This document shows, piece after piece, positions 42,693-61,649 of a stretch of 64,000 bases of DNA. The stretch is from Paludibacter sp. (lineage in GTDB: Bacteria > Bacteroidota > Bacteroidia > Bacteroidales > Paludibacteraceae), in assembly GCA_034928085.1 (NCBI GenBank), contig JAYFPG010000022.1:51456-115455 (forward strand), given 5' to 3'. Each line of letters opens with the position of its first letter. The stretch's first letter is position 1. The notes under the pieces were generated by a model. The model saw only the letters and a program-made list of their open reading frames with translations, was not told the origin of the DNA and did not search any database. Both the position numbers and the translations under genes were made by a program.

Positions 42693-42708
42693 GTCTTTTT
42701 ATATTCTC

Positions 42709-44928
42709 TTACAGTTCAAGTTGGTTCTTAACTAAATGATAATAAGCGCCTTTCTTCTTTGTGAGACTTTCATGGGTTCCTGTTTCAACAATTTCCCCAT
42801 TGTCAAGCACCACGATTTGATCTGCATTTTTCACGGTGCTGAGCCTATGTGCAATTACGACGGATGTCCTGCCTTCGAAGAATCTGCCTAAGTTGTCCAT
42901 GATGATTTTCTCATTGTTCGTGTCCAATGCGTTGGTTGCTTCATCTAAAAACACGAACTCCGGATTCTTGTAAATTGCTCTGGCAATGAGGATTCTCTGC
43001 TTCTGACCCTGACTGAGCGCATGTCCTTCAGATCCAATTTTAGTATCGTATTTTGATGATAAAGTTTCGATGAAGGGTCTGATATTGGCCGTATTAACTG
43101 CGTTCAACAGCCTGTCTTTGTCTATTTCTTCGTCACCTGGTGCAATATTCCTTGCTATACTGTCGGTAAAGATGTATCCTTCCTGCATCACTACACCACA
43201 ATTTTTTCTCCATTCACGCATGTTGTAGTGTGATAAACTGTTGCTGCCCAGGAATATATGTCCCTGTTGTGGTTTGTAAAACCCCAGCAGGAGTTTCATC
43301 ATGGTAGTTTTACCACTTCCACTCATTCCCACAATGGCAGTCTGTTTCCCGGAGGGAATATGAAGGTTTATGTTTTTTAAAACGGGTTTTCCTGCTGAGG
43401 TTGTATCGTAAGCAAATGTCAGATTGTGGATTATAATGTCCTGTTTATCAGGGATGTTGTGGATCTGATCCGGATTATCTTCATCTTCATTGTCTTTGGT
43501 ATAAACCTCGCTGAGCCTTTCGATGCTAAGGCGTGCATCCTGTGACTCCCGGTAGAAGTGGATCAACTGATCAATTGGGCTATTTAGCTGGCCCAGAATG
43601 TATTGTACAGAGAGCATCATCCCCAAACTCATGTTTCCGTCAATCACAAACTTGGCAACTAAGGCAGTAATGATGATGTTTTTGGTTTGATTGATAAAAA
43701 TCGCTCCGGAATCCTGATACTGACTTAAAGCCAAACCTTTGATCCTCAGCTTGAAGAGTTTGGCCTGTATTCTTTCCCATTCCCATCTTTTCTGTTGTTC
43801 GCAGGCGTTCAGTTTGATTTCCTGCATGCCGGTAATAAGCTGAATTACATTGCTTTGATTAGCTGCTTGTTGTGCGAAGTTTTTGTGGTCGAGTGTTTCT
43901 CTTTTCTTCATAAACAGACTTACCCAAAAGAAATACAGGAGACTCCCCACTAAGAAAATCAGGAAAATTGTTACATTGTAAAACAAGAGTATTAAGGTGA
44001 ATATCACAATGTTAAACAGCCCAAACAGGATGTTCAGGGTAGAGTTTGTTAGGTAATTCTGAATGCGGGTATGGTCACCCATGCGTTGTAACAGATCACC
44101 GGTCATTTTGGTGTCGAAATAGCCCATGGGCAACCGCATCAGCTTAGCCAGAAAATCGGAAATCACCGAAATGTTGACGCGGGTTCCTATGTGCAATAGT
44201 ATCCAACCCCTGATGAATTCAACGGTTGAGGCGCTAAACACCAGAACTAACTGAGCAATCAGGACAAGATATATATAGCCTATGTTTTGTGCTGAGATTC
44301 CGAAATCTACTATAGACTGGGTGAGGAAGGGGAGTAAAAGTTGCAGCAGACTGCCAAAAAACAGTCCGAGAAACAACTGGAATATCAGTTTTTTGTAGGG
44401 TTTCAGGTAAGAAAAAAGAAATGAAAATCCTTTACTGGTATTGGTTTTGTCACTTTCTTTATTGAAAAACCCGGGAGTAGTTTCCAGCAGTAGGGCAATG
44501 CCTACATCTTCTCCGTCACTACGGGTGCTCAACCAGCAACGACAAAATTCTTCTTTGGTGTATTTCAGTTTTCCGGCTCCCGGATCTGCCACATAAATAA
44601 TATCTTTCCCGTTTTTTTCGCGGATGTCATAAACTACGACGAAATGTTGTTGGTTCCAGTGTACAATGCAGGGGAGGGGGGCTTCTTTCTTTAATTCTTC
44701 GAAGTTTACATAGACACCTACTGTACGGAAACCCAGTTTCTCAGCGGCTTCGCTGATGCCTAACAAGGAAACGCCTTCACGACTGAAGTGGGATTTTTCA
44801 CGGAGTCCTTCAAGGGAGTATTGCCTTCCATAGTGCGCTGCAATCATACGCAGGCAGGTCGGACCGCAATCCATGGCATCGTGTTGGTGGTAGAAGGGAA
44901 ATTTAGACATAGAGTTCATAATATTCAA
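42709..44928 (-). CDS. C39 peptidase-containing ABC transporter (PCAT; double-glycine peptide exporter)
   Basis: QHDAMDCGPTCL (catalytic Cys), HWNQQHFVV (His), VADP; TM domain; GMSGSGKT, LSQGQ, FLDEAT, IAHR. Confidence 0.95.
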   Translation of the reverse strand: MNIMNSMSKFPFYHQHDAMDCGPTCLRMIAAHYGRQYSLEGLREKSHFSREGVSLLGISEAAEKLGFRTVGVYVNFEELKKEAPLPCIVHWNQQHFVVVYDIREKNGKDIIYVADPGAGKLKYTKEEFCRCWLSTRSDGEDVGIALLLETTPGFFNKESDKTNTSKGFSFLFSYLKPYKKLIFQLFLGLFFGSLLQLLLPFLTQSIVDFGISAQNIGYIYLVLIAQLVLVFSASTVEFIRGWILLHIGTRVNISVISDFLAKLMRLPMGYFDTKMTGDLLQRMGDHTRIQNYLTNSTLNILFGLFNIVIFTLILLFYNVTIFLIFLVGSLLYFFWVSLFMKKRETLDHKNFAQQAANQSNVIQLITGMQEIKLNACEQQKRWEWERIQAKLFKLRIKGLALSQYQDSGAIFINQTKNIIITALVAKFVIDGNMSLGMMLSVQYILGQLNSPIDQLIHFYRESQDARLSIERLSEVYTKDNEDEDNPDQIHNIPDKQDIIIHNLTFAYDTTSAGKPVLKNINLHIPSGKQTAIVGMSGSGKTTMMKLLLGFYKPQQGHIFLGSNSLSHYNMREWRKNCGVVMQEGYIFTDSIARNIAPGDEEIDKDRLLNAVNTANIRPFIETLSSKYDTKIGSEGHALSQGQKQRILIARAIYKNPEFVFLDEATNALDTNNEKIIMDNLGRFFEGRTSVVIAHRLSTVKNADQIVVLDNGEIVETGTHESLTKKKGAYYHLVKNQLEL

Positions 44929-45032: not shown

Positions 45033-45143
45033 TTATACCCTAATTCTAATTCTTCTTCCGTCAGGTAATATGATATTTACATAATAACCACCTATGGTCT
45101 CATTTAATTGCTCAGGAGACATTTTTTTTAAATTTGTTTTCAT
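45033..45143 (-). CDS. Double-glycine-leader precursor peptide 3: MKTNLKKMSPEQLNETIGG-YYVNIILPDGRRIRIRV
   Basis: Manual translation; GG-leader pattern; homologous to peptides 1 and 2; immediately upstream of the PCAT. Confidence 0.85.
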   Translation of the reverse strand: MKTNLKKMSPEQLNETIGGYYVNIILPDGRRIRIRV

Positions 45144-45193: not shown

Positions 45194-45304
45194 TTACACT
45201 CTAACTCTTACTACAGTACCATCAGGTAAAATGATATTTACATAATAACCACCTTTTGTCTCATTTAATTGTTCGGGAGACATATTTCTAAGATTTGTTT
45301 TCAT
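45194..45304 (-). CDS. Double-glycine-leader precursor peptide 2: MKTNLRNMSPEQLNETKGG-YYVNIILPDGTVVRVRV
   Basis: Manual translation; core identical in protein to peptide 1, with 4 synonymous codon differences. Confidence 0.87.
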   Translation of the reverse strand: MKTNLRNMSPEQLNETKGGYYVNIILPDGTVVRVRV

Positions 45305-45364: not shown

Positions 45365-45487
45365 TTATACCCTAACTCTTACTACAGTACCATCAGGTAA
45401 AATAATGTTTACATAATAGCCACCTTTAGAATCATTCAGTTGCTCAGTACTAAGTTTTCTGAATTTGTTTTCGTTAATTGTTTTCAT
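45365..45487 (-). CDS. Double-glycine-leader precursor peptide 1: MKTINENKFRKLSTEQLNDSKGG-YYVNIILPDGTVVRVRV
   Basis: Manual translation; LSTEQL...GG fits the LSxxELxxxxGG leader consensus. Confidence 0.87.
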   Translation of the reverse strand: MKTINENKFRKLSTEQLNDSKGGYYVNIILPDGTVVRVRV

Positions 45488-45537
45488 TGTTTTTATTATT
45501 AATTGGTTTGACATTCATATTGTTTTGTTTGACAATG

Positions 45538-49172: not shown

Positions 49173-49793
49173 TTATTTGATAAGTTTTAATCCTGTGGTT
49201 GCCGATTCATCATTGGGTCTGAGTGTCATAGCGTGATTGAAAAGAATGCCGGCCTCCGCCTGTTTACCAAGATTCAGCTTTGTCCACGCCAGCATAATGA
49301 CTGAATCGTAATCAAGTGGATACAGATTTACAACTTTCTCAAACAGTTTTACCGCGTTCTGGTAGTCTTTTTTGTTGTAGTAAATGACACCGAGCCAGTA
49401 GTTCGCAACCGTGTTTTGTGGGTCAATTTTCAGAATCTGATGATATTGTTGCTTGACTTTTTCCCATTGTTCAGTTGCGCTATAGGGTTTCACAATACCG
49501 AATCGTGCTTCAATTGAATAGGGCTTTAGTCTGATGGCATTGAGGTAGAATTTTTCAGCTTCAGCATGTTGTCTGGATAAATAATGAAGCCAACCCATGC
49601 GGATATTAGCAAAATAATCTTCAGATTTATAGACTTTTTTTAATTCTGAGATGGCTTGTGCATATTTACCTGTCTTTTCAGCTTCATAGCTTTTGTAAAA
49701 GGCCTGTTGCCAAACTGTCTGATTCTGTGCTCCTGTAGTCATTGCTATAAAAAGCAGGCACGCGGTAACTGTTTTTCGAATTATATTTTCCAT
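49173..49793 (-). CDS. Exported tetratricopeptide-repeat protein
   Basis: Signal peptide; TPR-like helices (AEKFYLNAIRLKP, ILKIDPQNTVANYWLG, FEKVVNLYP). Confidence 0.8.
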   Translation of the reverse strand: MENIIRKTVTACLLFIAMTTGAQNQTVWQQAFYKSYEAEKTGKYAQAISELKKVYKSEDYFANIRMGWLHYLSRQHAEAEKFYLNAIRLKPYSIEARFGIVKPYSATEQWEKVKQQYHQILKIDPQNTVANYWLGVIYYNKKDYQNAVKLFEKVVNLYPLDYDSVIMLAWTKLNLGKQAEAGILFNHAMTLRPNDESATTGLKLIK

Positions 49794-50950
49794 ATCAAAC
49801 CTCCTGTAATTGAATGTTGGTTGTAGAATAAATTATCCGTGAATATTTTTTTTGTATCGTAGTTGTAATTCAAATAAATCGTCAGGGGCTTGCACAGATA
49901 CCAAAATCCTGAAATGCCCGTCCTGAACGTGGTCGGATCAAGCGAGTTGTAAAAGTATAAGCCATTATTGTCAATGAATTGATTGAGATTGCCCACGTTT
50001 ACATAAGCTTCTGTCCACATTCTATTGAAGAGCATAATTCCGGCCGTTTGTTTAAAAACATTTCGTCCATAACTGTAATCCAAACCTGTTTCGACAATTC
50101 TGTAGTAAGAGCTTGTCAGGTTTATGTTGTTACTTCCGGCAAAATTAACACCCAGATGTACCCCCAGTTGTTTAGAGTCGAGCCATTCATTTTTAAAAGA
50201 TGCGCCCGACAACGCCAGATCGAAACGGTTCAGTTGTTGTGTTATTTTCCCGTAAAAGATATTTCCGGGATAGTTGAAAGTGTCGGCGCCATAGACCACC
50301 TTTGAACCAACATAGTGATAGCCGATGCTGATGTTGGTTTTTGCGGCCGGATTCCATCCCAATAAAACAAAATACTCATTCTGACGGGTTTGTGTTGTAT
50401 CCGTACTTTGGTTGAAATTGGAGAAACTCTGATATAAGTTTAATTTGTATCCAAGCTGACTGTTCAGTCCGAGACGTTTGTAATGACCCTGATGGGTGGA
50501 AGGATTATCAGGCATTTTATAGCTATACTCCAGATCAACTGCATCGGTTAAACGGTATTGTTTTTCCCTGACTTCTGTCAGCGTAATTTCAGAAAGCTGC
50601 GATGCCTGGAATCTGGCAAAGGCTGTTCTGCCCGTATATACGCCATTGTAATAAAGATATAACCGGGATATTTCATCATCATCATAATCTAATGCTTTCT
50701 CGTAATGTCGCATACTTTTGTAATACTGTTTTTTTACAAAATATGCATATCCCACCCGTTGCTGAAGCCATTTAAAGTCAATATTATTCTTTTTAGCCAG
50801 CTCAGCTGTTTCAATCAGTCCATCCCAATCACCGGCGTTGAACTGAACGTAGCTCAGACTGTCAATAGAGACAATCGAAACCTGATTGTTTGCATAACTA
50901 AGTAAACTGTAAAAAAACAGCAAAAGCACAATTATCCTGACTGATTTCAT
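49781..50950 (-). CDS. Exported protein with N-terminal TPR and probable outer-membrane beta-barrel
   Basis: Signal peptide; TPR-like GYAYFVKKQYYKSMRHYEKAL; alternating amphipathic strands ending ...ITGGLIWKI; overlaps the TPR gene. Confidence 0.6.
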   Translation of the reverse strand: MKSVRIIVLLLFFYSLLSYANNQVSIVSIDSLSYVQFNAGDWDGLIETAELAKKNNIDFKWLQQRVGYAYFVKKQYYKSMRHYEKALDYDDDEISRLYLYYNGVYTGRTAFARFQASQLSEITLTEVREKQYRLTDAVDLEYSYKMPDNPSTHQGHYKRLGLNSQLGYKLNLYQSFSNFNQSTDTTQTRQNEYFVLLGWNPAAKTNISIGYHYVGSKVVYGADTFNYPGNIFYGKITQQLNRFDLALSGASFKNEWLDSKQLGVHLGVNFAGSNNINLTSSYYRIVETGLDYSYGRNVFKQTAGIMLFNRMWTEAYVNVGNLNQFIDNNGLYFYNSLDPTTFRTGISGFWYLCKPLTIYLNYNYDTKKIFTDNLFYNQHSITGGLIWKI

Positions 50951-50956
50951 CTGTTC

Positions 50957-53149
50957 TTATATGAGTCTTTTTGCCTGAATTACTTTCTTGCCCGAAATAT
51001 ACTCAAAAGAATCGAGACCCTGTTGGTTTATTTTGATTTTACTTTTAGCCAGAATTGATTTTCTTCCAAAGGTTGTAATGGTAATCTCAGTTCTAATCTC
51101 AATTTCAGAGGTATCAAGCATATGATCAATTTTTTCAACTTTCTCACAATAACCCGCCTTCAGGAAATTAAAAAATGGTGCAGTGAAGTCGTTTAGACTG
51201 CTTATCAGCTTCTTATTCTCCAGTAAATGAATCGGGATATTATCATTTATCGGTATATTGCTGTCTGATAATAGTATTTTATAAGCAGATAAGAAAAAAT
51301 AATAAAGCAACGATTTGCGGTTTCCGTAGAACGCTGTAAAATAGAACATCATGTTGTCGCAGGTATAGTAAGCAACTGCATCTGTTTCCCGGCTGTGGAG
51401 GTATTTGTAGTTCAATGCATCTGTATATGCATCCCAATGTTCTGTCTTTTCGTTACCCTTCTCATCCCGGGTATATATTTTCAGACCGGTATCTGGTAAT
51501 AGGTTGAACGCGTTAAACAGGAAGGGTTGCTGACGCAGGTTGGCAACTAAGGTTTTTTCCACTGGTATTGAGAATTGTTCCAGACGTTTATGCTGTAAGT
51601 TGATAAAATAAGAGATGGGGTAATCAACCGTTTTTGAACCGATGACCGGATAATGTTGCAGTTGAAAATGCAGGTGTGGATAAGGTGAGCGTCCTGAGTT
51701 TCCACATTGCGCCACTGCATCTCCACATTTTACGAAATCCCCCTTTTTTACCTTAACTGAACCCTTTTTAAGATGTGAGAGTTGTGAATATAAACCGGTT
51801 ATGTGTTGAATGACAAGGCTGTTCCCCCAGTTATTAGTCGTGTTGACTTCACCAATAGCATTGTCTTCGATATGATCGACAATATCCACGATGAACCCAT
51901 CAGCTGGAGCCGTAACCGGTTTTCCGTAGCAATAATAATCCTCACATGTCAGACCGGCTGATTTGTAGGATTTTCCTTCTTCATTCAGGATCATGAAATC
52001 AAATGCTTTGCCCCATTCATCTTTATGGGTAAATGCGCCATCATGTCCCTGAGTTACTGTCCATTCTCCCCAGAATGGCAGTTGCACCGGATGGTACAAA
52101 AACCGGTTCAGCCGTTCTTTGTTGTTCAAATATGCATATAAATTCGTTTCAGGCGAATAATGCTGAATGGGTGTGAGAATCAATTTCTTCTGATTGTTCC
52201 GCTGTTGCAGGAAATGTACAAACAGGATTGTGATGATGGAGTAGGGCAGCGAAAAAACCGGAAGTTGTATCAAACTAAAGAGTTTTGTGAAAAAAACCAG
52301 CACGATGGATGTCAGCGGAACCAACAGGATGGTCCAGAAATAGGATGATTTTGATGGTATGACAAAGAATCCACCCATGGCAATGGCAACCATCATGAAA
52401 TTCGCCCCAATATTATAATAGGTAATGCTGGCAGCTTCCGATCCGGAGAATTGAGCAAAGATATAGGCTGATATAAAGCCGATTACTGATAATGAAAAAA
52501 ATATGCGAGAACTGATGAGTAAGGCAATGGCAATGACAATGCCGGTTATCAGGTTGTTCTGGAAGAAAATAGAACTCAGTGAACGCAAATAAATTTCGAG
52601 TAAGCTGTTTAATTCCCAGGATTCGATGTATTGGTAAATAGAGAGCAGTGAGTTTCCGCCTACTGAATACAATTCGTTAATCCAGAATATGTTACGTTGG
52701 GTCAGACCAAGATTCTCATACAGGGAGGATGGAAGCACGACAAACCAGAAAGCCAAAATAAACGGGATACTCAGATAGGGTAGACCATATTTAAACAACC
52801 ACCCACCCAATGCAACCGATAATATCAGCGTAAGCACCGACGAAAGCGCGAGCAGGGTAAAAAAAACGATACCCGGGTCGAAGAAAGTCCCCAGGCCGAT
52901 ACCGGTTATCAATGCATTAAAGCTTAATACGCCATTGCGTAGCTGAACCTTATCAAAACCTAAGGAGTTTGCCAGCAAAACAGCTATAAGTACCGCAATC
53001 AATCCACTCAATCCTGCATAGAAATTGAGGAAAGTAGCCACCATGACTGCTATTGCCATGAAACGGTTATTCAGAAAAAAGATGATGGAATAACTGTTTA
53101 AGATGGCCGGGAGAATTGTTTCACGGGTGTTTTTGAATGTATCTTTCAA
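50957..53149 (-). CDS. Urea-transporter-like membrane domain fused to an M23 peptidase-like domain
   Basis: Hydrophobic N-half (NSYSIIFF, SSIFFQNN..TG, LPVFSLP); soluble HKDEWGKAFDF, GKPVTAPADG, WGNSLVIQH, YSQLSHL, GNSGRS..PHLHFQLQ; TTG start. Confidence 0.78.
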   Translation of the reverse strand: MKDTFKNTRETILPAILNSYSIIFFLNNRFMAIAVMVATFLNFYAGLSGLIAVLIAVLLANSLGFDKVQLRNGVLSFNALITGIGLGTFFDPGIVFFTLLALSSVLTLILSVALGGWLFKYGLPYLSIPFILAFWFVVLPSSLYENLGLTQRNIFWINELYSVGGNSLLSIYQYIESWELNSLLEIYLRSLSSIFFQNNLITGIVIAIALLISSRIFFSLSVIGFISAYIFAQFSGSEAASITYYNIGANFMMVAIAMGGFFVIPSKSSYFWTILLVPLTSIVLVFFTKLFSLIQLPVFSLPYSIITILFVHFLQQRNNQKKLILTPIQHYSPETNLYAYLNNKERLNRFLYHPVQLPFWGEWTVTQGHDGAFTHKDEWGKAFDFMILNEEGKSYKSAGLTCEDYYCYGKPVTAPADGFIVDIVDHIEDNAIGEVNTTNNWGNSLVIQHITGLYSQLSHLKKGSVKVKKGDFVKCGDAVAQCGNSGRSPYPHLHFQLQHYPVIGSKTVDYPISYFINLQHKRLEQFSIPVEKTLVANLRQQPFLFNAFNLLPDTGLKIYTRDEKGNEKTEHWDAYTDALNYKYLHSRETDAVAYYTCDNMMFYFTAFYGNRKSLLYYFFLSAYKILLSDSNIPINDNIPIHLLENKKLISSLNDFTAPFFNFLKAGYCEKVEKIDHMLDTSEIEIRTEITITTFGRKSILAKSKIKINQQGLDSFEYISGKKVIQAKRLI

Positions 53150-53167
53150 GTTTTAATTTTTTTAGAT

Positions 53168-53204
53168 CTGTCAGGTTCTTTTGTTATTTAAACCTGACAG
53201 GTTT
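53168..53204. repeat. REP-like palindrome (AAACCTGACAGGTTT type)
   Basis: ctgtcaggtt-N13-aacctgacag stem; aaacctg-a-caggttt self-palindrome at 53190-53204. Confidence 0.55.
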
Positions 53205-53220
53205 GTAAGCTCGTTTGTAT

Positions 53221-54567
53221 TTATTTCAAATGTCCCGGAACTTCTTCCAGAGAATCAATGTACTCCATGGTTTCTGCTTTTCTTATGATATGTGTATTAT
53301 TATCAGCGTCAATCAGCACAATATTTGGTCTTAGTGTGATGAACTGCATCCACTGGGTCATGTTGTAGGCACCGACCTGGTGTACAACCAGTTGATTCCC
53401 TTTTTCGAGTAAGGGCATCACGATACTTTCGCGTACGATGTCGATATTCATACACAAAGGACCGTATAACACCATCTCTTCCGTTTGCTGGCCCATGGGT
53501 TGAGCCGGACTGACCTTGTGCTCATACCAAAGTGATGTAAACAAAGTGTTGAGGCCGAAGTCAAGAATGGTGGCCCGGCGTCCGTCGGATAAACGTTTGG
53601 TTGCCAATACAGTTCCAAGCAGGTAACCCGCATCGTCAATCAGGGCGCGACCACTTTCCAGAATCAACAAAGGCAGTTCGTCCTGACTGAATCCATATCC
53701 TAAAATGACATCGGTTATAGCATCCGCAAACTGGTCCAGCGAAGGTACCGTGTCTGTCCCCGGAAGATAAGCACCTTTCAGGGTGTTGGTTGAAGGGAAA
53801 CCGCCTCCCAGATCAAGGTATTGCAACATTTTGCCATATCGTTCTTTTACACTCCAGGCCAACTCGCAAAGATTTCTGGCAGCTGTTGCGTAGGCATTGG
53901 GTGATAACATGAAAGTGCCGATGTGGCAATGCAGTCCCACCAAATCAAGGTTCGGGGAGTTGAGAATCCGGGTAAGTGCATTCCAGGCCTGACCATTTTC
54001 AAAATTAAAACCAAACCGGTCCCATTTAGGGTAAATTCCGGTATCCATATTGATGCGAATGGCAACTCGGGGCCTGAGTTTATGCTCATCACTCAAACGA
54101 AGCAGCGTATAAAGTTCATCGTAATGGTCGATGTGAATGAGTGAGTTGTTTTTAGCTGCTACTAACAGTTGCTCATCACTTTTATCCGGGCCGTTGAAAA
54201 TAATTTGGTTACCCGGTACCCCGTTCTGCAGGGCTTTGTCGTATTCAAATCCGGATACGACTTCCGCCCATGAGCCTTCCTGATGAAATATCTGACAAAC
54301 TGCGTCTAAATAGTTAGTTTTATACGACCAGGCAAATTGAACTTTAGGGTACCGGGTTTTAAAAATTCTGGAGGCATTCTGAAAGTTTCTTCTGATTTGT
54401 TTCTCTGAAATAACAAATAACGGAGAACCATATTCTTTTAATAGTCCCTTTACTGAAACACTTTCGATGTGTGTAACCGGTTCATTCTCTGTTTTAGTGC
54501 CGAATTTATTCATCAACCCTGTGTTCATTTTTCGCAAGGTCGGTCTTTCGTATCTTTTCTTTTCCAT
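53221..54567 (-). CDS. Fold-type III PLP decarboxylase (LysA/Orn-DAP-Arg family) with N-terminal extension
   Basis: YGSPLFV, WSYKTN (PLP Lys), IIFNGP.K, GLHCHIG, LDLGGGF, ESGR, GPLC, VGAY. Confidence 0.85.
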   Translation of the reverse strand: MEKKRYERPTLRKMNTGLMNKFGTKTENEPVTHIESVSVKGLLKEYGSPLFVISEKQIRRNFQNASRIFKTRYPKVQFAWSYKTNYLDAVCQIFHQEGSWAEVVSGFEYDKALQNGVPGNQIIFNGPDKSDEQLLVAAKNNSLIHIDHYDELYTLLRLSDEHKLRPRVAIRINMDTGIYPKWDRFGFNFENGQAWNALTRILNSPNLDLVGLHCHIGTFMLSPNAYATAARNLCELAWSVKERYGKMLQYLDLGGGFPSTNTLKGAYLPGTDTVPSLDQFADAITDVILGYGFSQDELPLLILESGRALIDDAGYLLGTVLATKRLSDGRRATILDFGLNTLFTSLWYEHKVSPAQPMGQQTEEMVLYGPLCMNIDIVRESIVMPLLEKGNQLVVHQVGAYNMTQWMQFITLRPNIVLIDADNNTHIIRKAETMEYIDSLEEVPGHLK

Positions 54568-54612
54568 GACAAATGCCTCCAGAATTTTAAAGTTATCTCT
54601 TTATTGTTGACA

Positions 54613-55419
54613 TCATTCTACAGCAGGCAATTCTAATTCGCCTAAATTAACATCAACCCCACCGATTACATCGAGATCTTCTATCAGGGTATTGGTTATT
54701 CCTGTTTGCAGATTCTCGCTCATAATATCATATGTTCCACTATAAAGTCCGTGCAATACAAATAAATTGTTTAGCAAGGTATCAGAGACAGTTGCGATTG
54801 TGTCTCCTGCTGTATTGGTGGTGAAAATTCTTGTGGCTACATCAGCAGGTAATAATGTTCCGTATATTTTGGAAGAATTTGCTGTGATGTATGCCCTAAT
54901 CACTGGTTTAAGCAGGTATTCACCGTTGCCCTTGAAGACAATTGAGCGTGATGCATCAAAATCAATGACGACTTTATAACCACTTGTGACTTCAGCATTT
55001 GATTGTACATTCAGCTTTAATCCCGACTGTTGTGCACTTGGAGTCTGTATTGGCAGTATAGAACTGTCACTTAACATAATTGTGTTATTGTCACCTAATA
55101 TAAGTCTCACCTGATGAATCTTCATTCCTGTTTCGAGTTCAATATTAGATAATAATGTGTCTTTGCCGTTAGAGAAATCTAATAAATTTATCACAGCCGG
55201 ACTGATAGGGAGATCCACCCAGGATCCTTCACCTTCTTCTTCGGCATTAACAGAATACCTGATGGCCTGTACATCTACATTAACGGCCAGAATGCCTTGG
55301 TCGGCAGGTGCGTCGGTAAGATAAAAACCCACTGTTTGTTTGTCAGTTGTATTACATGCAACGAATAATACAGCTATAAGTGATGCGAATACTAATTTTG
55401 TTGTTTTCATTGTTTTCAT
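54613..55419 (-). CDS. DUF4382-like lipoprotein
   Basis: Lipobox VAC; LTDAP, INLLDFSNG, RLILG.NN, TPSAQQSGLKL, DFDASRSIV..G...LKPVIR. Confidence 0.75.
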   Translation of the reverse strand: MKTMKTTKLVFASLIAVLFVACNTTDKQTVGFYLTDAPADQGILAVNVDVQAIRYSVNAEEEGEGSWVDLPISPAVINLLDFSNGKDTLLSNIELETGMKIHQVRLILGDNNTIMLSDSSILPIQTPSAQQSGLKLNVQSNAEVTSGYKVVIDFDASRSIVFKGNGEYLLKPVIRAYITANSSKIYGTLLPADVATRIFTTNTAGDTIATVSDTLLNNLFVLHGLYSGTYDIMSENLQTGITNTLIEDLDVIGGVDVNLGELELPAVE

Positions 55420-55543
55420 TTTTTTAGTTAAACAATTAATAAAGTAATTTTTTAGTTTTGGTTTACGTTCAGCTGAAAGTAAAATCTGGTTGTTTTTGTT
55501 AGTTAACTATCTTTTTATGTACTTTTCTATAATTATAACTCTC

Positions 55544-56587
55544 CTATAACTCTCCGTTTCCGGAAATCATTTGAAACTCCTTGATGTCAGTAATTAAATC
55601 CCAGGCATAACGGATGAAAATTTTCCCTACTTCATACGTTTTAAACGGTTCAACTTTCTCACCCATCGCCATCTTAACCAAACTGGCCGGTTGGTTTTGT
55701 CCAGCTCCGGCTGTAAGGTAAATCCAGGCCGGGAATCTCGGATTTACTTCCATGATGTAGGGTTTACCGTCATCGGTGAGCATTACTTCCAGTTCGCACC
55801 CCCCCCGCCATTTGGTTGTTTCAATGAATTTTCGGGCAAGTTCCACCAGTTTATCATCTTCTAACGTAATGCCAGCCCATGCTTTGCCTTTGTCGGTGAT
55901 GTAAAGTTTACGCATGGGGATGATGCTGATGGCATTGCCATCGCCATCACCCAGTGCCGCGATGTTTATCTCTGTTCCTTTTATAAACTCCTGCATGATG
56001 ATGGGTAATCCCCATTTAGCCATGATTTTGAGAAATGCTTTTTCCGCCTGATCGTAACTGCGGGCAATTACAGCATCATAAAATTTACCTTTTACAACGA
56101 TAGGATACTCCAAATCATCCTCCATTTTCTTCAACTCGCGAAGCTCATGTAATATCTTATCTTCAGGTACCAGAAATCCATGTTTCTGTCCGAATTCGAA
56201 TAATTTCATTTTATCTCTGGCCTCAAACTGATTTAATTCGGGCAGGAAAGTGCGTATTCCAAGTCCCTTTAACTTGTCTCTCAGCTTAATGAAATTATAG
56301 AGTTCTGCATCGAAATTTGGAATAATCAAATCCAGTTTTTCCTGTTCATGGATATACATCAGTCTGGCATACAAACTATCGGTACCGCCCGATGGATAAG
56401 GAATCTGATAAGTTTTGTCGACCAGATCGTGCATGTACAGTCCCGGCTCTAACGCTTCATAGGAAAGTCCGATAATTTTAACATCGAAGTCCGTACATTC
56501 CCGGATGGCTCGAATCACGGCGACACCTGGTCCCGGACTGTCGATGGCATTTAATGCAGTAACGGCTATGACGATTTGTTTTCTCAT
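55544..56587 (-). CDS. ATP-grasp carboxylate-amine ligase of unknown substrate
   Basis: LIIPNFDAEL, YPIVVKG, IMQEFIKGTE, ELEVM...YIMEVNPRFPAW. Confidence 0.85.
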   Translation of the reverse strand: MRKQIVIAVTALNAIDSPGPGVAVIRAIRECTDFDVKIIGLSYEALEPGLYMHDLVDKTYQIPYPSGGTDSLYARLMYIHEQEKLDLIIPNFDAELYNFIKLRDKLKGLGIRTFLPELNQFEARDKMKLFEFGQKHGFLVPEDKILHELRELKKMEDDLEYPIVVKGKFYDAVIARSYDQAEKAFLKIMAKWGLPIIMQEFIKGTEINIAALGDGDGNAISIIPMRKLYITDKGKAWAGITLEDDKLVELARKFIETTKWRGGCELEVMLTDDGKPYIMEVNPRFPAWIYLTAGAGQNQPASLVKMAMGEKVEPFKTYEVGKIFIRYAWDLITDIKEFQMISGNGEL

Positions 56588-56593
56588 GTTCGG

Positions 56594-56833
56594 TTATTCG
56601 AGTATGCTGTAATCTTTTAATAATCCTGTAAACTCATCGAGGTCACGTTCAAGTAACAAACGGTCGACATCGTAATTTTCACTGATCTCTTCAATAATTT
56701 CAGATGTTGACTTATCCTGTTTCAATAAGCTGATAATTTCCGAACCGATTCCATTTGTTGAAAATGAATCTCCGGTCGCAGGATTAAACAGAAATCCCTC
56801 GTCGCTTACGGCTATGTTTTTACGTATTCTCAT
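56594..56833 (-). CDS. PqqD-family / RiPP recognition element (RRE) protein
   Basis: 79 aa; beta-strands (IAVSDEGFLFNPATGDSFSTN) followed by three helices (GSEIISLL, EIIEEISENYDV, LERDLDEFTGLLK); start moved to MRIRKN (56833). Confidence 0.82.
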   Translation of the reverse strand: MRIRKNIAVSDEGFLFNPATGDSFSTNGIGSEIISLLKQDKSTSEIIEEISENYDVDRLLLERDLDEFTGLLKDYSILE

Positions 56834-56856
56834 AACGGTGTTAGTTTTGTTTGATG

Positions 56857-56920
56857 CAAATGTAAAACTACTGAAAAATGCTTCCAAATTTTTTCAGTGC
56901 AACGCGGACAATTTTCAGTG
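56857..56920 (-). promoter_or_regulatory. Promoter of the PqqD/ATP-grasp operon with LytTR-type direct repeats
   Basis: -7 TACATTTG (56857-56864); CACTGAAAA-N12-CACTGAAAA (56912-56920 and 56891-56899). Confidence 0.6.
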
Positions 56921-56929
56921 AAATTAAAT

Positions 56930-59005
56930 TCAAAGTATAATTTTTTCAGTAAACTCCCCGATTTTTACCACGAAGATTCCCCTGACGGGAAGATAAATGT
57001 TCATTGTTTCAGTGCTTGCTTTTTGTTTGGTGATTGATAGACCATGCAAACTGTAAATTTCAATCCAATCGCCCGGAGTCAGGTTTCTAATGGATAGCCC
57101 ATCGCGGGTTCTAAAGCATCGGCAGGATTGTTGGGAGGGCATATGAGCCGAAGTGTTGAAATCGACTTCTGTTATAGTAAGAAATTCTCCCCAATAGGGT
57201 GCGTCGGCGTATAAAGTACGGGAAGCTGTTGGTACCATTAACGTACAGCTTGTTTTGTTGATTAAATCTAAGGTGTAATAATCAACAACAGGTGGAAGCG
57301 ATTTAGCAACTCCTATATTAGTTAAATTTGAACAGGCATAAAAAGCGCCTGCCCCTATTGAATCTGTGCTTTGCGGTATTGTTAAACTGGTGAGTCCTGT
57401 ACAATATTCAAAAGCATATGCCCCAATTTTCTGAATATTCTGTGTTAGATTTATCTCTGTTAGTTTATTGCAACCGTCAAATGCAGCATACTCAATTTGT
57501 TTTACTGATGACGGAATGGAGTATTCACCCGCTTTACTTAATGGGCACAAATAAAGCTGTTCCTGATTTTTGCTGAATAAAACGCCATCTGTGGCGCTAT
57601 AATATTGATTGGCGCCGTCGACGGTGAATCCGCTGATGGCAGTGCAATTATAAAAAGCATATTCACCAAGATAATTCAGGGAAGCGGGAAAATGAATGTT
57701 GCCAGTAATACCTGTGCAATTATTAAAGGCTCCCGGGTCGATAGTAACCGTATTCCCGGGTATGGTGATGTTACCGGTTTTAGTTGTTGGGCAAATGATG
57801 ATTCTGTCCTTAGATTTTGAATGCAAAATGCCATTTTCAGCCGTAAAATAAGGGTTGAGCGCATTCGCTGCATAAGCCCCGATCTGACTGCAACCGTAAA
57901 ATGCATAATATCCAATATAATCGGTTAGCTGTGGGATGGTGATGGTGCCGGTCAGTTTGGAACATTTATAAAAAGCGTGACTTCCTATCAACTTAACAGA
58001 ATTAGGGATGGTAAATGTACCTGTTTTAGCGCCGGGACAAATAAACAAAGTATCAAGATTTTTGCTGTACAAGACGTCATTGGAGGCTGTATAATCGGGG
58101 TTTGCGGCATTTACGGTAAAGGATTTCAGGTTATTACATTCTAAAAAGCAATACATGCCAAGATTTGTCAGGCTTGCCGGTATGGTTACGGTACCGGTTA
58201 AGTTGTAACAGCCGTAGAAGCTGCCATCACCCAGTGATGTAACTCCGTTTGGGATTGTGAGGTTCCCGGAAATGCCCGAACAGTAGGCAAATGCGTATGT
58301 GCCTGTTGAAATTAATGAACTTGGTAATGTTACAGTTGTAAGATTATAGCAGTTCTCGAAAGCTGAATTGGCAATATGTTTTACTGTGGCCGGGATGGCG
58401 TAATTTCCGGTTTTAGCATTCGGGCATACGAACAGCGTGTCTTGCATTTTGTTGAATAGAATACCGTTTGAGCTGCTGTATCTGGTGTTTGAGCTGTTTA
58501 CTGAAAATGAATTTAATGCATAACATCCGTAAAAAGCATAGTCCCCAATTGATTTCACTTTAGCCGGAATACTTATTGAGGTCATATTCCAGCAATAATA
58601 AAATGCAAGTTCACCAATCGATGTGATAGTTGGAGGAAGCGTGACCATTGTCAACGACGGTTTGTATGATAGTAATGCAGGATTGTAAAAGGCGTAGGCC
58701 GGAAACTCATTTGCAGGATAGTTTATCTGTGTACCGGTGTTGGTTCCATCGGTTCCACTATAAGAATTTATAACGGCATCGGTAAAATTCAGTGAGGATA
58801 CTTTCTTTACCTCATCCCGGATGAAAGCGATGTCCCTGGCGTCAATATTTCCGGCAACCGACAGATTTATAAGATTAGTCCGGTCACTTTCATTTAAATA
58901 AGCAGAAAGAGTTCCGGCGGTTGTTACATACACCGATTTGGAAATTTGAGCTTGTAATGTAAGGAAAGATAATACGCAAAACGTCAATAAGAGTGATTTT
59001 TTCAT
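56930..59005 (-). CDS. BspA-like leucine-rich-repeat surface protein with probable T9SS CTD
   Basis: Many LT.ITIP.SV..IG..AF..C repeats; four V...N..Y....GVL.SK....L..CP inserts; C-terminal EIYSLHG...GIFVVKI...KIIL. Confidence 0.9.
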   Translation of the reverse strand: MKKSLLLTFCVLSFLTLQAQISKSVYVTTAGTLSAYLNESDRTNLINLSVAGNIDARDIAFIRDEVKKVSSLNFTDAVINSYSGTDGTNTGTQINYPANEFPAYAFYNPALLSYKPSLTMVTLPPTITSIGELAFYYCWNMTSISIPAKVKSIGDYAFYGCYALNSFSVNSSNTRYSSSNGILFNKMQDTLFVCPNAKTGNYAIPATVKHIANSAFENCYNLTTVTLPSSLISTGTYAFAYCSGISGNLTIPNGVTSLGDGSFYGCYNLTGTVTIPASLTNLGMYCFLECNNLKSFTVNAANPDYTASNDVLYSKNLDTLFICPGAKTGTFTIPNSVKLIGSHAFYKCSKLTGTITIPQLTDYIGYYAFYGCSQIGAYAANALNPYFTAENGILHSKSKDRIIICPTTKTGNITIPGNTVTIDPGAFNNCTGITGNIHFPASLNYLGEYAFYNCTAISGFTVDGANQYYSATDGVLFSKNQEQLYLCPLSKAGEYSIPSSVKQIEYAAFDGCNKLTEINLTQNIQKIGAYAFEYCTGLTSLTIPQSTDSIGAGAFYACSNLTNIGVAKSLPPVVDYYTLDLINKTSCTLMVPTASRTLYADAPYWGEFLTITEVDFNTSAHMPSQQSCRCFRTRDGLSIRNLTPGDWIEIYSLHGLSITKQKASTETMNIYLPVRGIFVVKIGEFTEKIIL

Positions 59006-59020
59006 TTTTTGCTGATATGC

Positions 59021-59923
59021 TTATTTAATAAAGTTCCTGCCGAGATATTGTTGAAAACTTTCTTTGTATTGTTCTCCAATAGGAATGAATTTCTTTTGTT
59101 CAATAAATATCCTGTTTTTCTCTACTGCCTGAATTTTATCGAGGTTGACAATAAAGGATCGTTGCACCCGCATAAAACGGTCAGTGGGCAGTTTGGTTTC
59201 TATGTTTTTCAAACGCATGAAAGTCGTGATGCTCTCCCCTTCATTCAGGTATATTTTAATGTACTCGTTGGCGCTTTCAATATATAAGATGTCCGAAATA
59301 AGTATTTTTACCATCTTTAAATCAGATTTCACATAGATGTATTCGTCAATGTGCTGATTTTCTTGCTGTACCTGTTTCTGTAGTTCTTTTTTTTGTTTTT
59401 CTTCTTCTATCCAGAAAAGGATAACTTTGTAGGCTGTACCTGTTCCAATCACCAATAAAGCAATGATGAGACTTTGTAAAAACTGCATTTCAGCAGTTCT
59501 TTCTGCTGATTGGTTTTGCATCCTGAATCCGGCTGGTGGAGGCATTCTTTCCGACAACTCCATAGGAGGCATGCCGGGACCGAGTTCCATGGGAGGCATG
59601 CCGGTTACCGACCGTGTTGTGTAGTTGTTTTCGACACGGAGACTGAAACATATTATCAGGGGAGTAATTGCCAGAATCAATAAAATGTATCTTTCATATT
59701 GCTTCTTTTTAAGATAGAGAGGAATTAAAACATAAATGTTGAGTACGAATACGAGTAAAAAAGAAGCGATTTTGATCCAGGATTCCATTATCCGACCCCA
59801 GAGTAATTTGTCCTCCGTCTGGTTAACTCCTATTGGTATAAGGAAAATTATCAGCCATATCAGAACAAAAATGGCTGATTCGATGAGCGTAAAATTGACT
59901 GATTTCTTTTTTGTGTTCTGCAT
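59021..59923 (-). CDS. Membrane-anchored LytTR-domain regulator (LytS-like TM region joined to LytTR)
   Basis: 4 TM helices, Pro/Met-rich loop, short charged coil, then YIYVKSD...ILYIES..EYIKI...FMRVQRSFIVN. Start moved to 59923 because a -7 element (TATATTTG, 59946-59953) lies in the ORF-track extension. Confidence 0.8.
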   Translation of the reverse strand: MQNTKKKSVNFTLIESAIFVLIWLIIFLIPIGVNQTEDKLLWGRIMESWIKIASFLLVFVLNIYVLIPLYLKKKQYERYILLILAITPLIICFSLRVENNYTTRSVTGMPPMELGPGMPPMELSERMPPPAGFRMQNQSAERTAEMQFLQSLIIALLVIGTGTAYKVILFWIEEEKQKKELQKQVQQENQHIDEYIYVKSDLKMVKILISDILYIESANEYIKIYLNEGESITTFMRLKNIETKLPTDRFMRVQRSFIVNLDKIQAVEKNRIFIEQKKFIPIGEQYKESFQQYLGRNFIK

Positions 59924-60003
59924 GAAAAGCATAAAAAGTTTGATGCAAATATAACCTTCATCACGTAACAACACAAATTATATCAGTATAAGCGCTGATT
60001 TTT

Positions 60004-60762
60004 TCAGTGAAATCCTTTCGCTTTTAATACTTCCATTGCCTTCTGATATCCCAGATCGAAGATCTCCATCACCTTGTCGGTTTCAAACAGATCAAAGTCG
60101 TAGATATTTTCGGGTTCGATGAGGATATCGCATAATGCTTTGTCGGCAAGTGTGTTGGCCCTGAACATGAAGTGGTAGGTTCGAAAAGCCACATCCATGA
60201 TGTTGACCTTGTACTTTTGGGCTACGAGCGGACCAACGTTAATTCCAATCAATAAATCGCATTCCTTGCGAATTGTTGAAACGGGGAAGTTTTTCAGCAG
60301 TCCTCCGTCGACATAATAATTGTTGTTTATTTTCTGGGGCGTAAAAAGTACCGGAATGCTACTTGACGCCATCACGGGTTTCAATAAATTACCTTCAGAA
60401 AAAGTTTCGGGAACACCGGTGTCAAAATTGGTGGCTACAATTCTAAGCGGGACGTTCAGTTCTTCAAATGTCTTGGCTTTCAGTTTCCGGCCAAGAAATC
60501 GGGCAAATGGAGCAATGCTGAAAAAACCGCCATCGGGAACATCTAATTTCGTCATTTTCTTGAAACTGATGTCTTCAAACATTTGTGCAATTTCGATGGG
60601 TTTGTGCCCATCGGCATACAGAGCCCCCACAATGGAACCTGCACTTACACCGGAAATGATTTCCGGCTTGATGTTCAGTTCTTCCATTGCCATCAATACA
60701 CCAGCGTGTGATATTCCCCGGATACCTCCGCCGCTCAATGCCAAACCAATTTTGTAAGCCAT
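60004..60762 (-). CDS. Patatin-like phospholipase
   Basis: LSGGGIRG, GVSAGS, DGG motifs. Confidence 0.92.
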   Translation of the reverse strand: MAYKIGLALSGGGIRGISHAGVLMAMEELNIKPEIISGVSAGSIVGALYADGHKPIEIAQMFEDISFKKMTKLDVPDGGFFSIAPFARFLGRKLKAKTFEELNVPLRIVATNFDTGVPETFSEGNLLKPVMASSSIPVLFTPQKINNNYYVDGGLLKNFPVSTIRKECDLLIGINVGPLVAQKYKVNIMDVAFRTYHFMFRANTLADKALCDILIEPENIYDFDLFETDKVMEIFDLGYQKAMEVLKAKGFH

Positions 60763-60788: not shown

Positions 60789-61649
60789 TTATATCGAGTA
60801 CTGCGAAAATTTCTCCATCACCTTGTCGTAATATGTTTTTGTGACCGGAATGTCGGGTGCGTTCGGGGCGTCAAGTTCCAAAAAAATACCTGCTTTGGTT
60901 TTTCTGAGTACCTTCACCTTATCTAAGTTGATAATATAGGAACGGTGACAACGAACCAACGGGGTTTCTTTTGTCAGGTTTTCCTCCATCCATTTCAATG
61001 AATTACGAATCAGGAAATTGGCGATTTTTTCTTTGTTGATATAATGAATGGTCGCATAATTGTCGGCAGAATCAATGTAGATTAAATTATCCAGCATAAT
61101 AGAGATTTTTAGCTCTCCTTTTTCATCGGTAAATCCAATCAGGCCTTTTTTAGGAATCTCAGTTAATGTTCTCTGGGTAACTCTTTCATTTAATAACCGG
61201 TTCTTATCCTTCCATGAAAAATACAAAAATGACATGGTGTAAGGAATTAAGAGTACCAGACTGGTATTGACGGCTGAGTTTTTCAACAGAATGAAAAAAT
61301 CTCTTTCTTCTGCTCCTTTCGGAACAAATTTCGAGAAAAGAGCGTAGAACATCGACATGGCAATGATTTCAGCAAATACCCAAACGGCATATTGCAGGTA
61401 ATTGACTTCATTTTTTCTTGTATACAACCCGAGAAATAAACGGCTTATTACTACCACCAGCATGCCAGTCAATATAATTAAACTGGAAAAAAAGAAGTAA
61501 TTAAAGTCTGATACGCCCTTATACCAGTCTCTGGAACCGAAAGGCTGGAAGATATTAATAAAAAGCAAAGCAAAAAATGCCGTGAACAATATCATGTGTG
61601 TGGTATTGCGCTTTTCAAGCAGGTAAAAAGGAATTTTTTGATCCACCAT
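60789..61649 (-). CDS. Membrane-bound one-component LytTR regulator
   Basis: 4 TM helices; IYIDSADNY, RCHRSYIINL; -7 TACCTTTG at 61676-61683. Confidence 0.87.
   Translation of the reverse strand: MVDQKIPFYLLEKRNTTHMILFTAFFALLFINIFQPFGSRDWYKGVSDFNYFFFSSLIILTGMLVVVISRLFLGLYTRKNEVNYLQYAVWVFAEIIAMSMFYALFSKFVPKGAEERDFFILLKNSAVNTSLVLLIPYTMSFLYFSWKDKNRLLNERVTQRTLTEIPKKGLIGFTDEKGELKISIMLDNLIYIDSADNYATIHYINKEKIANFLIRNSLKWMEENLTKETPLVRCHRSYIINLDKVKVLRKTKAGIFLELDAPNAPDIPVTKTYYDKVMEKFSQYSI

Follow-up and report, generated by a model that had tools for sequence, protein, structure and literature searches.

A conserved six-gene cluster of Bacteroidota combining a PqqD-type protein, an ATP-grasp ligase and a decarboxylase with a urea-transporter-M23 fusion protein: a possible system for making and exporting a small amine

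Gene content and conservation of the cluster

The window analysed here, a stretch of 64,000 nt from Paludibacter sp., contains on its minus strand (49173-56833) a group of genes for a small PqqD-family protein, an ATP-grasp ligase, a pyridoxal phosphate (PLP) dependent decarboxylase, a urea-transporter (UT) domain fused to an M23 metallopeptidase, an outer-membrane barrel protein and a secreted tetratricopeptide repeat (TPR) protein. Pfam and NCBIfam scans identified seven genes with the same orientation in this region (Table 1). All genes named in an initial annotation of the DNA were found by these scans at the positions and on the strand given there, but that list missed a seventh gene, which encodes a DUF4382 lipoprotein and lies in the gap between ligase and decarboxylase. 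The tight gene junctions described before were also recovered: the distance from the PqqD gene to the ligase gene and from the UT-M23 gene to the barrel gene is 6 bp in each case, and the barrel and TPR genes overlap by 13 bp. The G+C content of the window is about 39%, and the nearest relatives are Paludibacter metagenome-assembled genomes with 97% protein identity.

The conservation of the cluster was analysed in two independent samples. For the genome sample an alignment of the UT-M23 protein was scanned against one genome per species, which yielded 192 relatives, and the best 80 of these were examined as loci. The metagenome sample was seeded with distant relatives of the ligase and yielded at least 591 relatives, of which 80 loci with a G+C content of 0.30-0.56 were examined. 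The best 80 of the 192 genome relatives all belong to the Bacteroidales (Paludibacter, Mariniphaga, Prolixibacteraceae and Lentimicrobiaceae). The order PqqD–ligase–decarboxylase–UT-M23–barrel–TPR was present in all 160 loci with enough contig (80 from genomes and 80 from metagenomes). In addition, ligase relatives with 40-47% identity led to the whole six-gene cluster on contigs with 54% and 76% G+C, and the hosts of these contigs can therefore not be Bacteroidales. Two gene fusions were identified, one of PqqD with the ligase (P0439) and one of the ligase with the decarboxylase (P0405). Because of the synteny in 160 loci and these two fusions, the six genes are one conserved functional unit, and the arrangement is far beyond chance. 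The search for conserved gene content suggested in the initial annotation has thus revealed synteny, in line with its view that the co-oriented genes belong together as one cluster. Across the families of the Bacteroidales in the 80 genome loci the identity is 71-98% for the ligase and 78-98% for the decarboxylase, whereas the membrane and outer-membrane parts diverge far faster, with identities down to 55% and 34%.

None of the curated NCBIfam models attained its cut-off for any of the cluster proteins, and apart from a note on the UT-M23 domain architecture full-text literature searches found no description of the cluster. The earlier statement that the cluster cannot be assigned to a characterised pathway therefore still holds. 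A role in anti-phage defence was considered and rejected, as PADLOC models gave no match among seven proteins of the window and three variant proteins.

Table 1. Genes, domains and other features of the cluster region in the window.
Feature	Position	Strand	Size or extent	Basis and remarks
PqqD-family RiPP-recognition-element protein	56594..56833	-	79 aa	PF05402, 45 bits
ATP-grasp carboxylate-amine ligase, CPS-like/PRK12767 branch	55544..56587	-	347 aa	ATP-grasp_3, ATPgrasp_Ter
DUF4382 lipoprotein	54613..55419	-	268 aa	PF14321, 106 bits; lipobox-like VAC; strain-variable insert, not core
FslC-like PLP decarboxylase (alanine-racemase fold, fold III)	53221..54567	-	448 aa	Pfam
N-terminal tail of the decarboxylase, YERPTLRKMNTGLMNKFG	54499..54567	-	residues 1-23	lasso-leader-like YxxPx(I/L) motif
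RNA hairpin between decarboxylase and UT-M23 genes	53166..53203	-	11-bp stem	dG -16.1 kcal/mol, z -7.1
UT, M23 and C-terminal domain fusion protein	50957-53149	-	730 aa	
Urea-transporter-fold channel domain	52190..53149	-	aa 1-320	PF03253, 160 bits
M23 metallopeptidase domain, most likely cytoplasmic	51635..52132	-	aa 340-505	PF01551, 55 bits
Beta-rich C-terminal domain	50960..51634	-	aa 506-730	AlphaFold2 pLDDT ~90, all-beta
Outer-membrane protein (signal peptide, ~100-aa TPR-like helical domain, 14-strand beta-barrel)	49781..50950	-	389 aa	AlphaFold2 pLDDT 93.9
Secreted TPR protein	49173..49793	-	206 aa	TPR_2 and related models; signal-peptide-like N-terminus
Bacteroidetes-type -33/-7 promoter-like motif, TTTG-N20-TACATTTG	56857..56888	-		24 nt upstream of the PqqD ATG
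BspA-type LRR protein	56930-59005	-		upstream, co-oriented
LytTR protein	59021-59974	-		upstream, co-oriented
LytTR protein	60004-60762	-		upstream, co-oriented
Patatin-like lipase	60789-61649	-		upstream, co-oriented

The PqqD protein and the search for a precursor peptide

The first protein of the cluster is a plain recognition element for peptides that are made by the ribosome and modified after translation (RiPP recognition element, RRE). The automatic open reading frame (ORF) begins at a TTG at position 56887, but the true start is the ATG at 56833, from which 57 homologues align. PqqD is full length in 57 of the 57 loci with room, and the motif GFxFNPxTGDSFSxN is nearly invariant. The weak NCBIfam matches include two lasso-type PqqD families and WgkC. 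At the C-terminus most copies of the Bacteroidales end with ILE or ILD, the ends in other phyla are unrelated, and about 10 of the 57 copies have extra residues beyond the end. Because of this variation at the C-terminus, the idea that PqqD is a carrier of the LysW type, with Glu as its last residue, was rejected.

A comparison of all ATG ORFs of 12-90 amino acids in 80 loci demonstrated that every conserved one is located within a conserved gene. There is no conserved intergenic small ORF of at least 12 amino acids in these loci, which agrees with the earlier remark that no separate precursor peptide is visible, and in the window no ATG occurs within 96 bp upstream of PqqD. The cluster also does not resemble a graspetide (microviridin-type) locus, since the ligase is nearest to 2pn1, carbamoyl phosphate synthetase (CPS) and PurD and no precursor was found in the 80 loci.

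A standalone or fused RRE beside an ATP-dependent ligase is nevertheless a hallmark of RiPP clusters, and this hallmark is present here, with PqqD 6 bp from the ligase and fused to it in P0439. A RiPP or scaffold peptide could be encoded elsewhere or by a tiny ORF; PqqD would present this peptide, the ligase would add a residue, the decarboxylase would act on it and M23 would release it, following the logic of microcin C, pearlins or lasso peptides. Microcin C production combines a peptide-clamp ligase (MccB), a decarboxylase joined to a RimL-type GNAT acetyltransferase (MccE), a peptidase (MccF) and an exporter (MccC). These functional parts correspond one for one to the parts of the cluster, but the ligase, peptidase and exporter here belong to other protein families and no heptapeptide gene was found. 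The MccE decarboxylase falls into the same clade as the decarboxylase relatives described below (PMC7857480). A GNAT of the Acetyltransf_3 type recurs at the loci studied here, and with its minimum of 12 amino acids the ORF screen would miss an ORF of seven amino acids like that of MccA. On the other side stand the lack of a conserved intergenic ORF in the 80 loci and of an ATG upstream of PqqD in the window, and the fact that the preceding gene almost abuts PqqD in several lineages (gaps of -3 to 37 bp). Furthermore, both enzymes, ligase and decarboxylase, retain about 80% identity between families, an unusual degree for secondary metabolism, and the pore of UT proteins is too narrow for peptides. 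Such a peptide product is therefore unlikely.

The ATP-grasp ligase

The ligase reached 118 bits with the model NF009405, which is under the cut-off. A profile of the ligase family compared with the PDB matched the uncharacterised structure 2pn1 first (86 bits), followed by the large subunit of CPS (72 bits), biotin carboxylases and PurD. RimK, LysX and the graspetide ligases were absent among the PDB matches listed for this profile, and cyanophycin synthase was merely marginal (22.5 bits). Conserved features include the lysines as well as the ExNxR motif, and in some variant loci the ligase is doubled.

Separate from the complete clusters, two loci of Crocinitomicaceae (L088 and L089) and the locus L092 contain the ligase alone or a PqqD-like protein plus the ligase, directly after a gene for a cargo protein of the type IX secretion system (T9SS). 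The decarboxylase, UT and barrel genes are missing at these loci.

The decarboxylase and its N-terminal tail

The initial annotation had assumed that the fold-III decarboxylase makes amines from basic amino acids. In a comparison with PDB chains the best solved relative was FslC/FigC, the N-citrylornithine decarboxylase (7kh2, 205 bits), ahead of diaminopimelate decarboxylase (DAPDC, at most 144 bits) by 60 bits, whereas BtrK reached 84 bits. The score with the FslC model NF041039 was 228 bits (cut-off 500) and with the lysA model TIGR01048 213.6 bits (cut-off 297.9). At the loop with the catalytic Cys the protein reads C-M-N-I-D, and on the specificity helix T-S-L-W-Y, like FigC and not like DAPDC or ornithine decarboxylase (ODC). 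It contains neither the Arg which binds diaminopimelate (DAP) in DAPDC (R343, in the RPxxY helix) nor the acidic residue after the catalytic Cys. In FigC, compared with DAPDC and ODC, a Met after the catalytic Cys replaces the acidic residue, and Thr and Tyr replace Arg343 of DAPDC (PMC7857480). The same study placed FigC, SbnH, AcsE, MccE and BtrK in one clade, whose substrates are amino acids already conjugated via the side chain (PMC7857480). Judged by these sequence features, the decarboxylase is not lysA, a possibility that the earlier reading had allowed for, and we group it with enzymes acting on conjugated amino acids and not with those acting on free basic amino acids, contrary to the original assumption. 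A sequence of reactions in which the ligation comes first and the decarboxylation second is suggested because the enzymes of the FigC clade act on conjugates and because a fusion of ligase and decarboxylase exists. A gene for a siderophore synthetase of the IucA/IucC (NIS synthetase) type was not detected in the cluster by the Pfam scan.

One could also suppose that the genes are unrelated neighbours and that the decarboxylase is simply the lysA of the organism, considering that it scores 214 bits on the lysA model. However, this score is below the cut-off of 297.9, the DAP-binding residues are missing, and the synteny in 160 loci together with the fusions refutes this explanation, which retains next to no probability.

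The decarboxylase starts with a tail of 23 residues with the consensus YE[RK]Px[IL]x5Gx2NKFG, the conservation of which equals that of the active site. The residues Y6, E7, R8, P9, G17 and N20-G23 are conserved to at least 95%, and the core Y-x-x-P-x-[LIVM] was found in 135 of 136 decarboxylase homologues. At position 11 the Leu of the window protein is replaced by Ile in the majority of homologues. The motif is also present in the high-GC loci, in the variant loci with a SIR2 domain described below and in the linker of the ligase-decarboxylase fusion protein, whereas the chains of FslC, BtrK and DAPDC in the PDB have no such N-terminal tail. In lasso peptide biosynthesis the PqqD-like B1 protein binds a YxxPxL motif of the leader peptide. 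This motif is conserved in lasso leaders at positions -17 to -12 (PMC10368454). In the cluster a motif of this type sits on the tail of the decarboxylase and not on a precursor peptide. We propose that PqqD docks onto the YxxPx(I/L) tail because the tail is nearly universal and carries the lasso leader motif, because PqqD shows weak matches to lasso-type PqqD families and because a precursor gene was not found. By analogy with the lasso system, the RRE would thus probably bind the N-terminus of the decarboxylase instead of the leader peptide that had been expected from the function of other RREs. The likeness to lasso clusters lies in the weak match of PqqD to the B1 models and the motif in its partner. 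Unlike lasso peptides, the motif is located on an enzyme, a precursor is missing, and neither the transglutaminase-type protease B2 nor the Asn-synthetase-like cyclase appeared in the Pfam and NCBIfam scans of the cluster proteins.

The UT-M23 protein and its variants

The AlphaFold model of the fusion protein (pLDDT 86) consists of a UT fold, an M23 domain and a beta-rich domain. The UT domain reached Foldseek TM-scores of about 0.8 to dvUT and UT-B. The UT signature is kept twice in the form LPxxSxPF, with Ser replacing the Thr of LPxxTxPF, and the second GFN of dvUT corresponds to GAN, the Phe being replaced by an invariant Ala. From what is known about the pores of UT proteins, this exchange may widen the channel. 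With the urea-transporter equivalog model TIGR03441 the domain scored 108 (cut-off 274.6), and a urease or amidolyase was detected neither among the cluster and flanking genes scanned (39.6-64 kb of the window) nor in the conserved gene set. The beta-rich C-terminal domain has no Pfam match and belongs to no known family; its conservation extends to the locus L085 and to all of the 80 metagenome loci that have room. The architecture with M23 on the C-terminal side of UT has been catalogued for bacteria in a 2026 survey of urea transporters, which gives the architecture only, without gene context, function or topology (PMC12998343).

The M23 residues H375, D384, H459, H492 and H494 do not vary among 73 sequences, and the motifs PHLHFQ and SHL align with the catalytic motifs of Pgp3 and Csd. 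In variant loci the C-terminal position of M23 is occupied by SIR2 or by SIR2 plus GNAT. These SIR2-type variants possess a doubled ligase, or a fusion of PqqD and ligase with a degenerate second ligase gene behind it. A 637-aa protein encoded after the ligase-decarboxylase fusion (P0405) showed no match to UT, M23 or the C-terminal domain. Both termini of UT proteins are located inside the cell, as established for UT-B, and behind the last UT helix the sequence continues with a basic linker. A cytoplasmic location of the M23 domain is most likely, because SIR2 and GNAT at the same position need NAD and acetyl-CoA, because of the location of the UT termini and because of the basic linker. A cytoplasmic M23 domain would not reach the cell wall and would therefore not be a cell-wall hydrolase. 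In nine metagenome loci a free gene for a RimL-type GNAT of the Acetyltransf_3 type immediately precedes PqqD, and in the locus L178 a GNAT gene lies further upstream, ahead of TPR genes. Enzymes which acylate or deacylate amines therefore recur as partners of the cluster, and this fits an amine product.

The outer-membrane components

The barrel protein matches no barrel family of Pfam. In the Foldseek search its model was most similar to OmpG (TMt 0.7), whereas PelBC appeared at rank 19; the identity of the barrel across the genome loci is 34-94%. The secreted TPR protein is present in all loci with room in both samples. It shows partial matches to PrsT, PgaA and TPR_Slam, all under the cut-offs; the score with TPR_Slam, a match of the TPR protein alone, was 20.7 (cut-off 35.2). 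TPR proteins accompany every variant of the cluster, whereas the barrel accompanies the M23 type only and is missing in the SIR2-type loci.

In the initial annotation the TPR and barrel proteins were likened to the exporters of synthase-dependent polymer systems. PgaA, BcsC, PelB/PelC, AlgK/AlgE and Slam likewise contain a TPR module joined to a barrel, and the cluster encodes an extra TPR protein. With its 14 strands the barrel resembles OmpG and differs from the PgaA/BcsC/AlgE type with 16-18 strands, a glycosyltransferase synthase is missing in the cluster, and the scores with PgaA and BcsC are far under the cut-offs. These results speak against an exporter of this kind. They also bear on the idea that a polyamide is made and exported, in which the ligase would build a polymer from an amino acid, pendant carboxylates would be taken off by the decarboxylase and the TPR-barrel would export the product. 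Some ATP-grasp enzymes, RimK and cyanophycin synthetase, do make poly-amino acids, pairs of TPR and barrel proteins export polymers with PelBC being among the Foldseek matches, and the ligases are doubled in variant loci. But the ligase is nearest to the CPS/PurD type, with RimK not among the matches listed and cyanophycin synthase at 22.5 bits, OmpG precedes PelBC by far in the structural ranking of the 14-strand barrel, the narrow pore of a UT monomer offers no conduit for a polymer through the inner membrane, and SIR2-type loci contain TPR proteins and no barrel. A polyamide product is highly improbable.

A second possibility raised before, the modification of surface or periplasmic proteins, can be put in the form that the module modifies or handles exported envelope proteins (T9SS cargo, lipoproteins or its own TPR proteins), for example by addition of an amine group or by a Slam-like translocation. 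Slam proteins are composed of TPR and a 14-strand barrel, which is the architecture found here. In addition, the genes inserted into the cluster or abutting it all encode exported proteins (the DUF4382 lipoprotein, DUF2202 and, in three lineages, T9SS cargo). A 266-aa protein with a Por_Secre_tail, a T9SS cargo, is encoded between PqqD and the ligase in eight loci, a T9SS cargo gene precedes the ligase directly in L088 and L092, and a leucine-rich repeat (LRR)/BspA protein is encoded upstream in 23 loci. However, the inserted families vary by lineage and are missing from most loci, and the cluster also occurs without a nearby T9SS cargo gene, including the non-Bacteroidales high-GC contigs. 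The Pfam scan detected no DUF560 among the cluster proteins, in contrast to Slam, and the TPR_Slam score is under the cut-off. T9SS cargo genes are very common in the Bacteroidota, hence the adjacency is possible by chance, and the match of the upstream LRR protein to the T9SS C-terminal sorting domain was not significant (12.4 bits, E 0.12). We regard a role in the handling of envelope proteins as very unlikely. Of the two products considered in the initial annotation besides an amine-containing peptide, both the polyamide and the modified surface protein have kept a place among the explanations and neither is favoured.

The channel-like components could also serve uptake or homeostasis: an amide, a ureido compound or a wall fragment would enter via barrel and UT and be processed in the cytoplasm by M23, decarboxylase and ligase, or the decarboxylation would consume protons under envelope or acid stress. 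UT proteins are passive bidirectional channels which bacteria use for uptake, and the Foldseek matches of the barrel include the uptake channels OmpG, CymA and FadL. The three enzymes are distantly related to the cell-wall enzymes Ddl, LysA and M23, and the regulators encoded upstream are of envelope-stress types (LytS/LytTR, or an ECF sigma factor with an LTXXQ protein). Opposed to this are the ATP-consuming ligase and the RRE, which point to synthesis, the decarboxylase without the residues for DAP or free basic amino acids, and the conserved gene set without urease, amidase or catabolic genes. Moreover, the gene order, with the cytoplasmic enzymes first and the envelope parts after them, is typical of make-and-export operons. 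An uptake function appears quite unlikely.

A proposed pathway for an amide-linked amine

We tentatively favour, at somewhat less than an even chance, an explanation in which a ligase–decarboxylase pair tethered by PqqD makes a small amide-linked amine, which is trimmed at the mouth of the UT channel and passed outward. By analogy with the systems discussed above, the ligase would couple a carboxylate and an amine in such a way that the linkage runs via the side chain of an amino acid. The decarboxylase would then strip the alpha-carboxylate of this conjugate, as FslC, SbnH, AcsE, BtrK and MccE do, and the product would be an amide-linked primary amine of the N-acyl-diamine or omega-aminoacyl-amide type. 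PqqD would dock the YxxPx(I/L) tail of the decarboxylase with no precursor peptide involved, and the decarboxylase would thereby be tethered to the ligase. The cytoplasmic M23 domain, or SIR2/GNAT in its place, would act on the amine where the UT-fold channel opens, by trimming, uncapping or capping it, and the amine would then move through the channel to the periplasm and via the TPR protein and the TPR-barrel across the outer membrane.

Several points weigh against this pathway. Every chemical step is drawn by analogy. The pore of UT proteins is narrow and usually conducts neutral molecules of the size of urea, so that a charged amine or a molecule of peptide size should not pass, and a dedicated TPR-barrel is not normally needed for small solutes. 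The nearest relatives of the ligase are CPS and biotin-carboxylase enzymes; these use bicarbonate or carbamate, and therefore the chemistry of the ligase could involve these compounds and not an organic acid. The topology of M23 rests on homology and the cofactor argument. The motif of the tail is imperfect in one homologue (L083), and the distal half of the tail (residues 10-23, 54499-54540, TLRKMNTGLMNKFG) weakly resembles the internal TG..NKFG loop of archaeal and bacterial DAPDCs, THPKISTGLKKNKFG, although this resemblance was statistically insignificant in the PDB search. Going by this similarity, the tail may be structural rather than a docking element, and its distal half could be a partial internal duplication.

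A broader proposal, which is possible but doubtful, is that an RRE has been re-used as a docking module between enzymes, or even for presenting a protein N-terminus to lasso-like processing, within an amine-making machine that spans the envelope and consists of PqqD, the decarboxylase tail, the ligase and UT with M23, SIR2 or GNAT in many Bacteroidota and high-GC bacteria.

Among known systems, FslA/FslC of the rhizoferrin pathway in Francisella, SbnE,F/SbnH and AcsD/AcsE also use an amide or ester ligase followed by a decarboxylase acting on the conjugate, comparable to the ligase-decarboxylase fusion found here. FslC is the closest relative of our decarboxylase (205 bits), and the Cys-Met loop and the Thr/Tyr specificity helix are common to both. 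Unlike these systems the cluster contains an ATP-grasp ligase in place of an IucA/IucC NIS synthetase and no exporter of the major facilitator superfamily or TonB receptor, and it adds the RRE, the UT-M23 protein and the TPR-barrel. The butirosin proteins BtrI, BtrJ and BtrK (an 87-aa carrier, an ATP-grasp enzyme and a DAPDC-like decarboxylase) have the same three-part composition, with a decarboxylase of the same clade. In contrast to BtrI, the small protein of the cluster has the PqqD/RRE fold and is no phosphopantetheinyl carrier, as it possesses no conserved attachment residue and a variable C-terminus.

The module occurs widely, with at least 192 species-level genomes and at least 591 metagenome stretches carrying it, and it is strongly conserved and transcribed in sludge communities. 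If the proposed pathway is true, it would provide the first role for the UT-M23 fusions, which were catalogued only in 2026, and an example of an M23 peptidase working in the cytoplasm. The biology of RREs would also be extended from leader peptides to enzyme tails, and anaerobic Bacteroidales from groundwater, sediments and wastewater would be expected to possess an amine metabolite or an envelope component of this origin.

Transcription, inserted genes and the surroundings of the cluster

Contigs from sludge metatranscriptomes, which derive from a strain with 90-95% identity, cover the whole cluster and bridge the gene junctions. At the position of the DUF4382 gene the RNA contigs of this related strain join 54569 to 55551 and skip 54570-55550. 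As the gene was also found in only one of the 80 genome loci (L005), it is a strain-specific insert. Other lineages carry different genes for exported proteins in the same place or in the gap from PqqD to the ligase. A contig of 296 nt from one sludge metatranscriptome covers the PqqD gene alone (56543-56838) with a word depth of about 200, compared with 39-55 for the flanking contigs; it reflects either a short transcript of high abundance or a conserved segment in which several strains were collapsed.

The initial annotation assumed that the genes start from one promoter. Upstream of PqqD this rests on a motif match: the pattern TTTG-N20-TACATTTG occurs four times in the window, with 4.9 matches expected by chance, and the position alone is suggestive. 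RNA contigs also run across the junction between the LRR and PqqD genes. A scan for sigma-70 promoters gave fewer sites than in shuffled sequence and a terminator scan about as many, so neither was informative. The hairpin in the gap between the decarboxylase and UT-M23 genes lacks a U-tract and is therefore not a canonical terminator; it may set differing levels of the enzyme and envelope genes. In the related strain an insertion of 18 nt is located beside this hairpin.

Genes for a LytS-type kinase and a REC-LytTR regulator are located upstream in the same orientation in 22-28 of about 59 metagenome loci, and 43 genome loci, like the window, have upstream genes for membrane LytTR proteins. 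Many related loci have LRR and LytTR genes at this upstream position. Other co-oriented upstream regulators are AraC and an extracytoplasmic function (ECF) sigma factor with an anti-sigma factor and an LTXXQ protein. The expression of the cluster is probably under the control of envelope-related regulators, depending on the lineage LytS/LytTR, an ECF sigma factor with a CpxP-like protein, or AraC. In the LytTR DNA-binding proteins of the window, membrane N-termini replace the receiver domains.

Elsewhere in the window, three tandem small ORFs on the minus strand (45033-45143, 45194-45304 and 45365-45514) encode double-glycine leaders (..EQLNExxGG) and near-identical 17-aa cores, YYVNIILPDGTVVRVRV. 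These ORFs immediately precede a C39-peptidase ABC exporter and an accessory ORF of 171 aa (42177-44928, minus strand). The arrangement resembles a bacteriocin or pheromone locus, and in other loci it is not linked to the PqqD cluster. Finally, the segment 20001-22000 of the window has a G+C content of 0.46, compared with 0.37-0.41 on both flanks.

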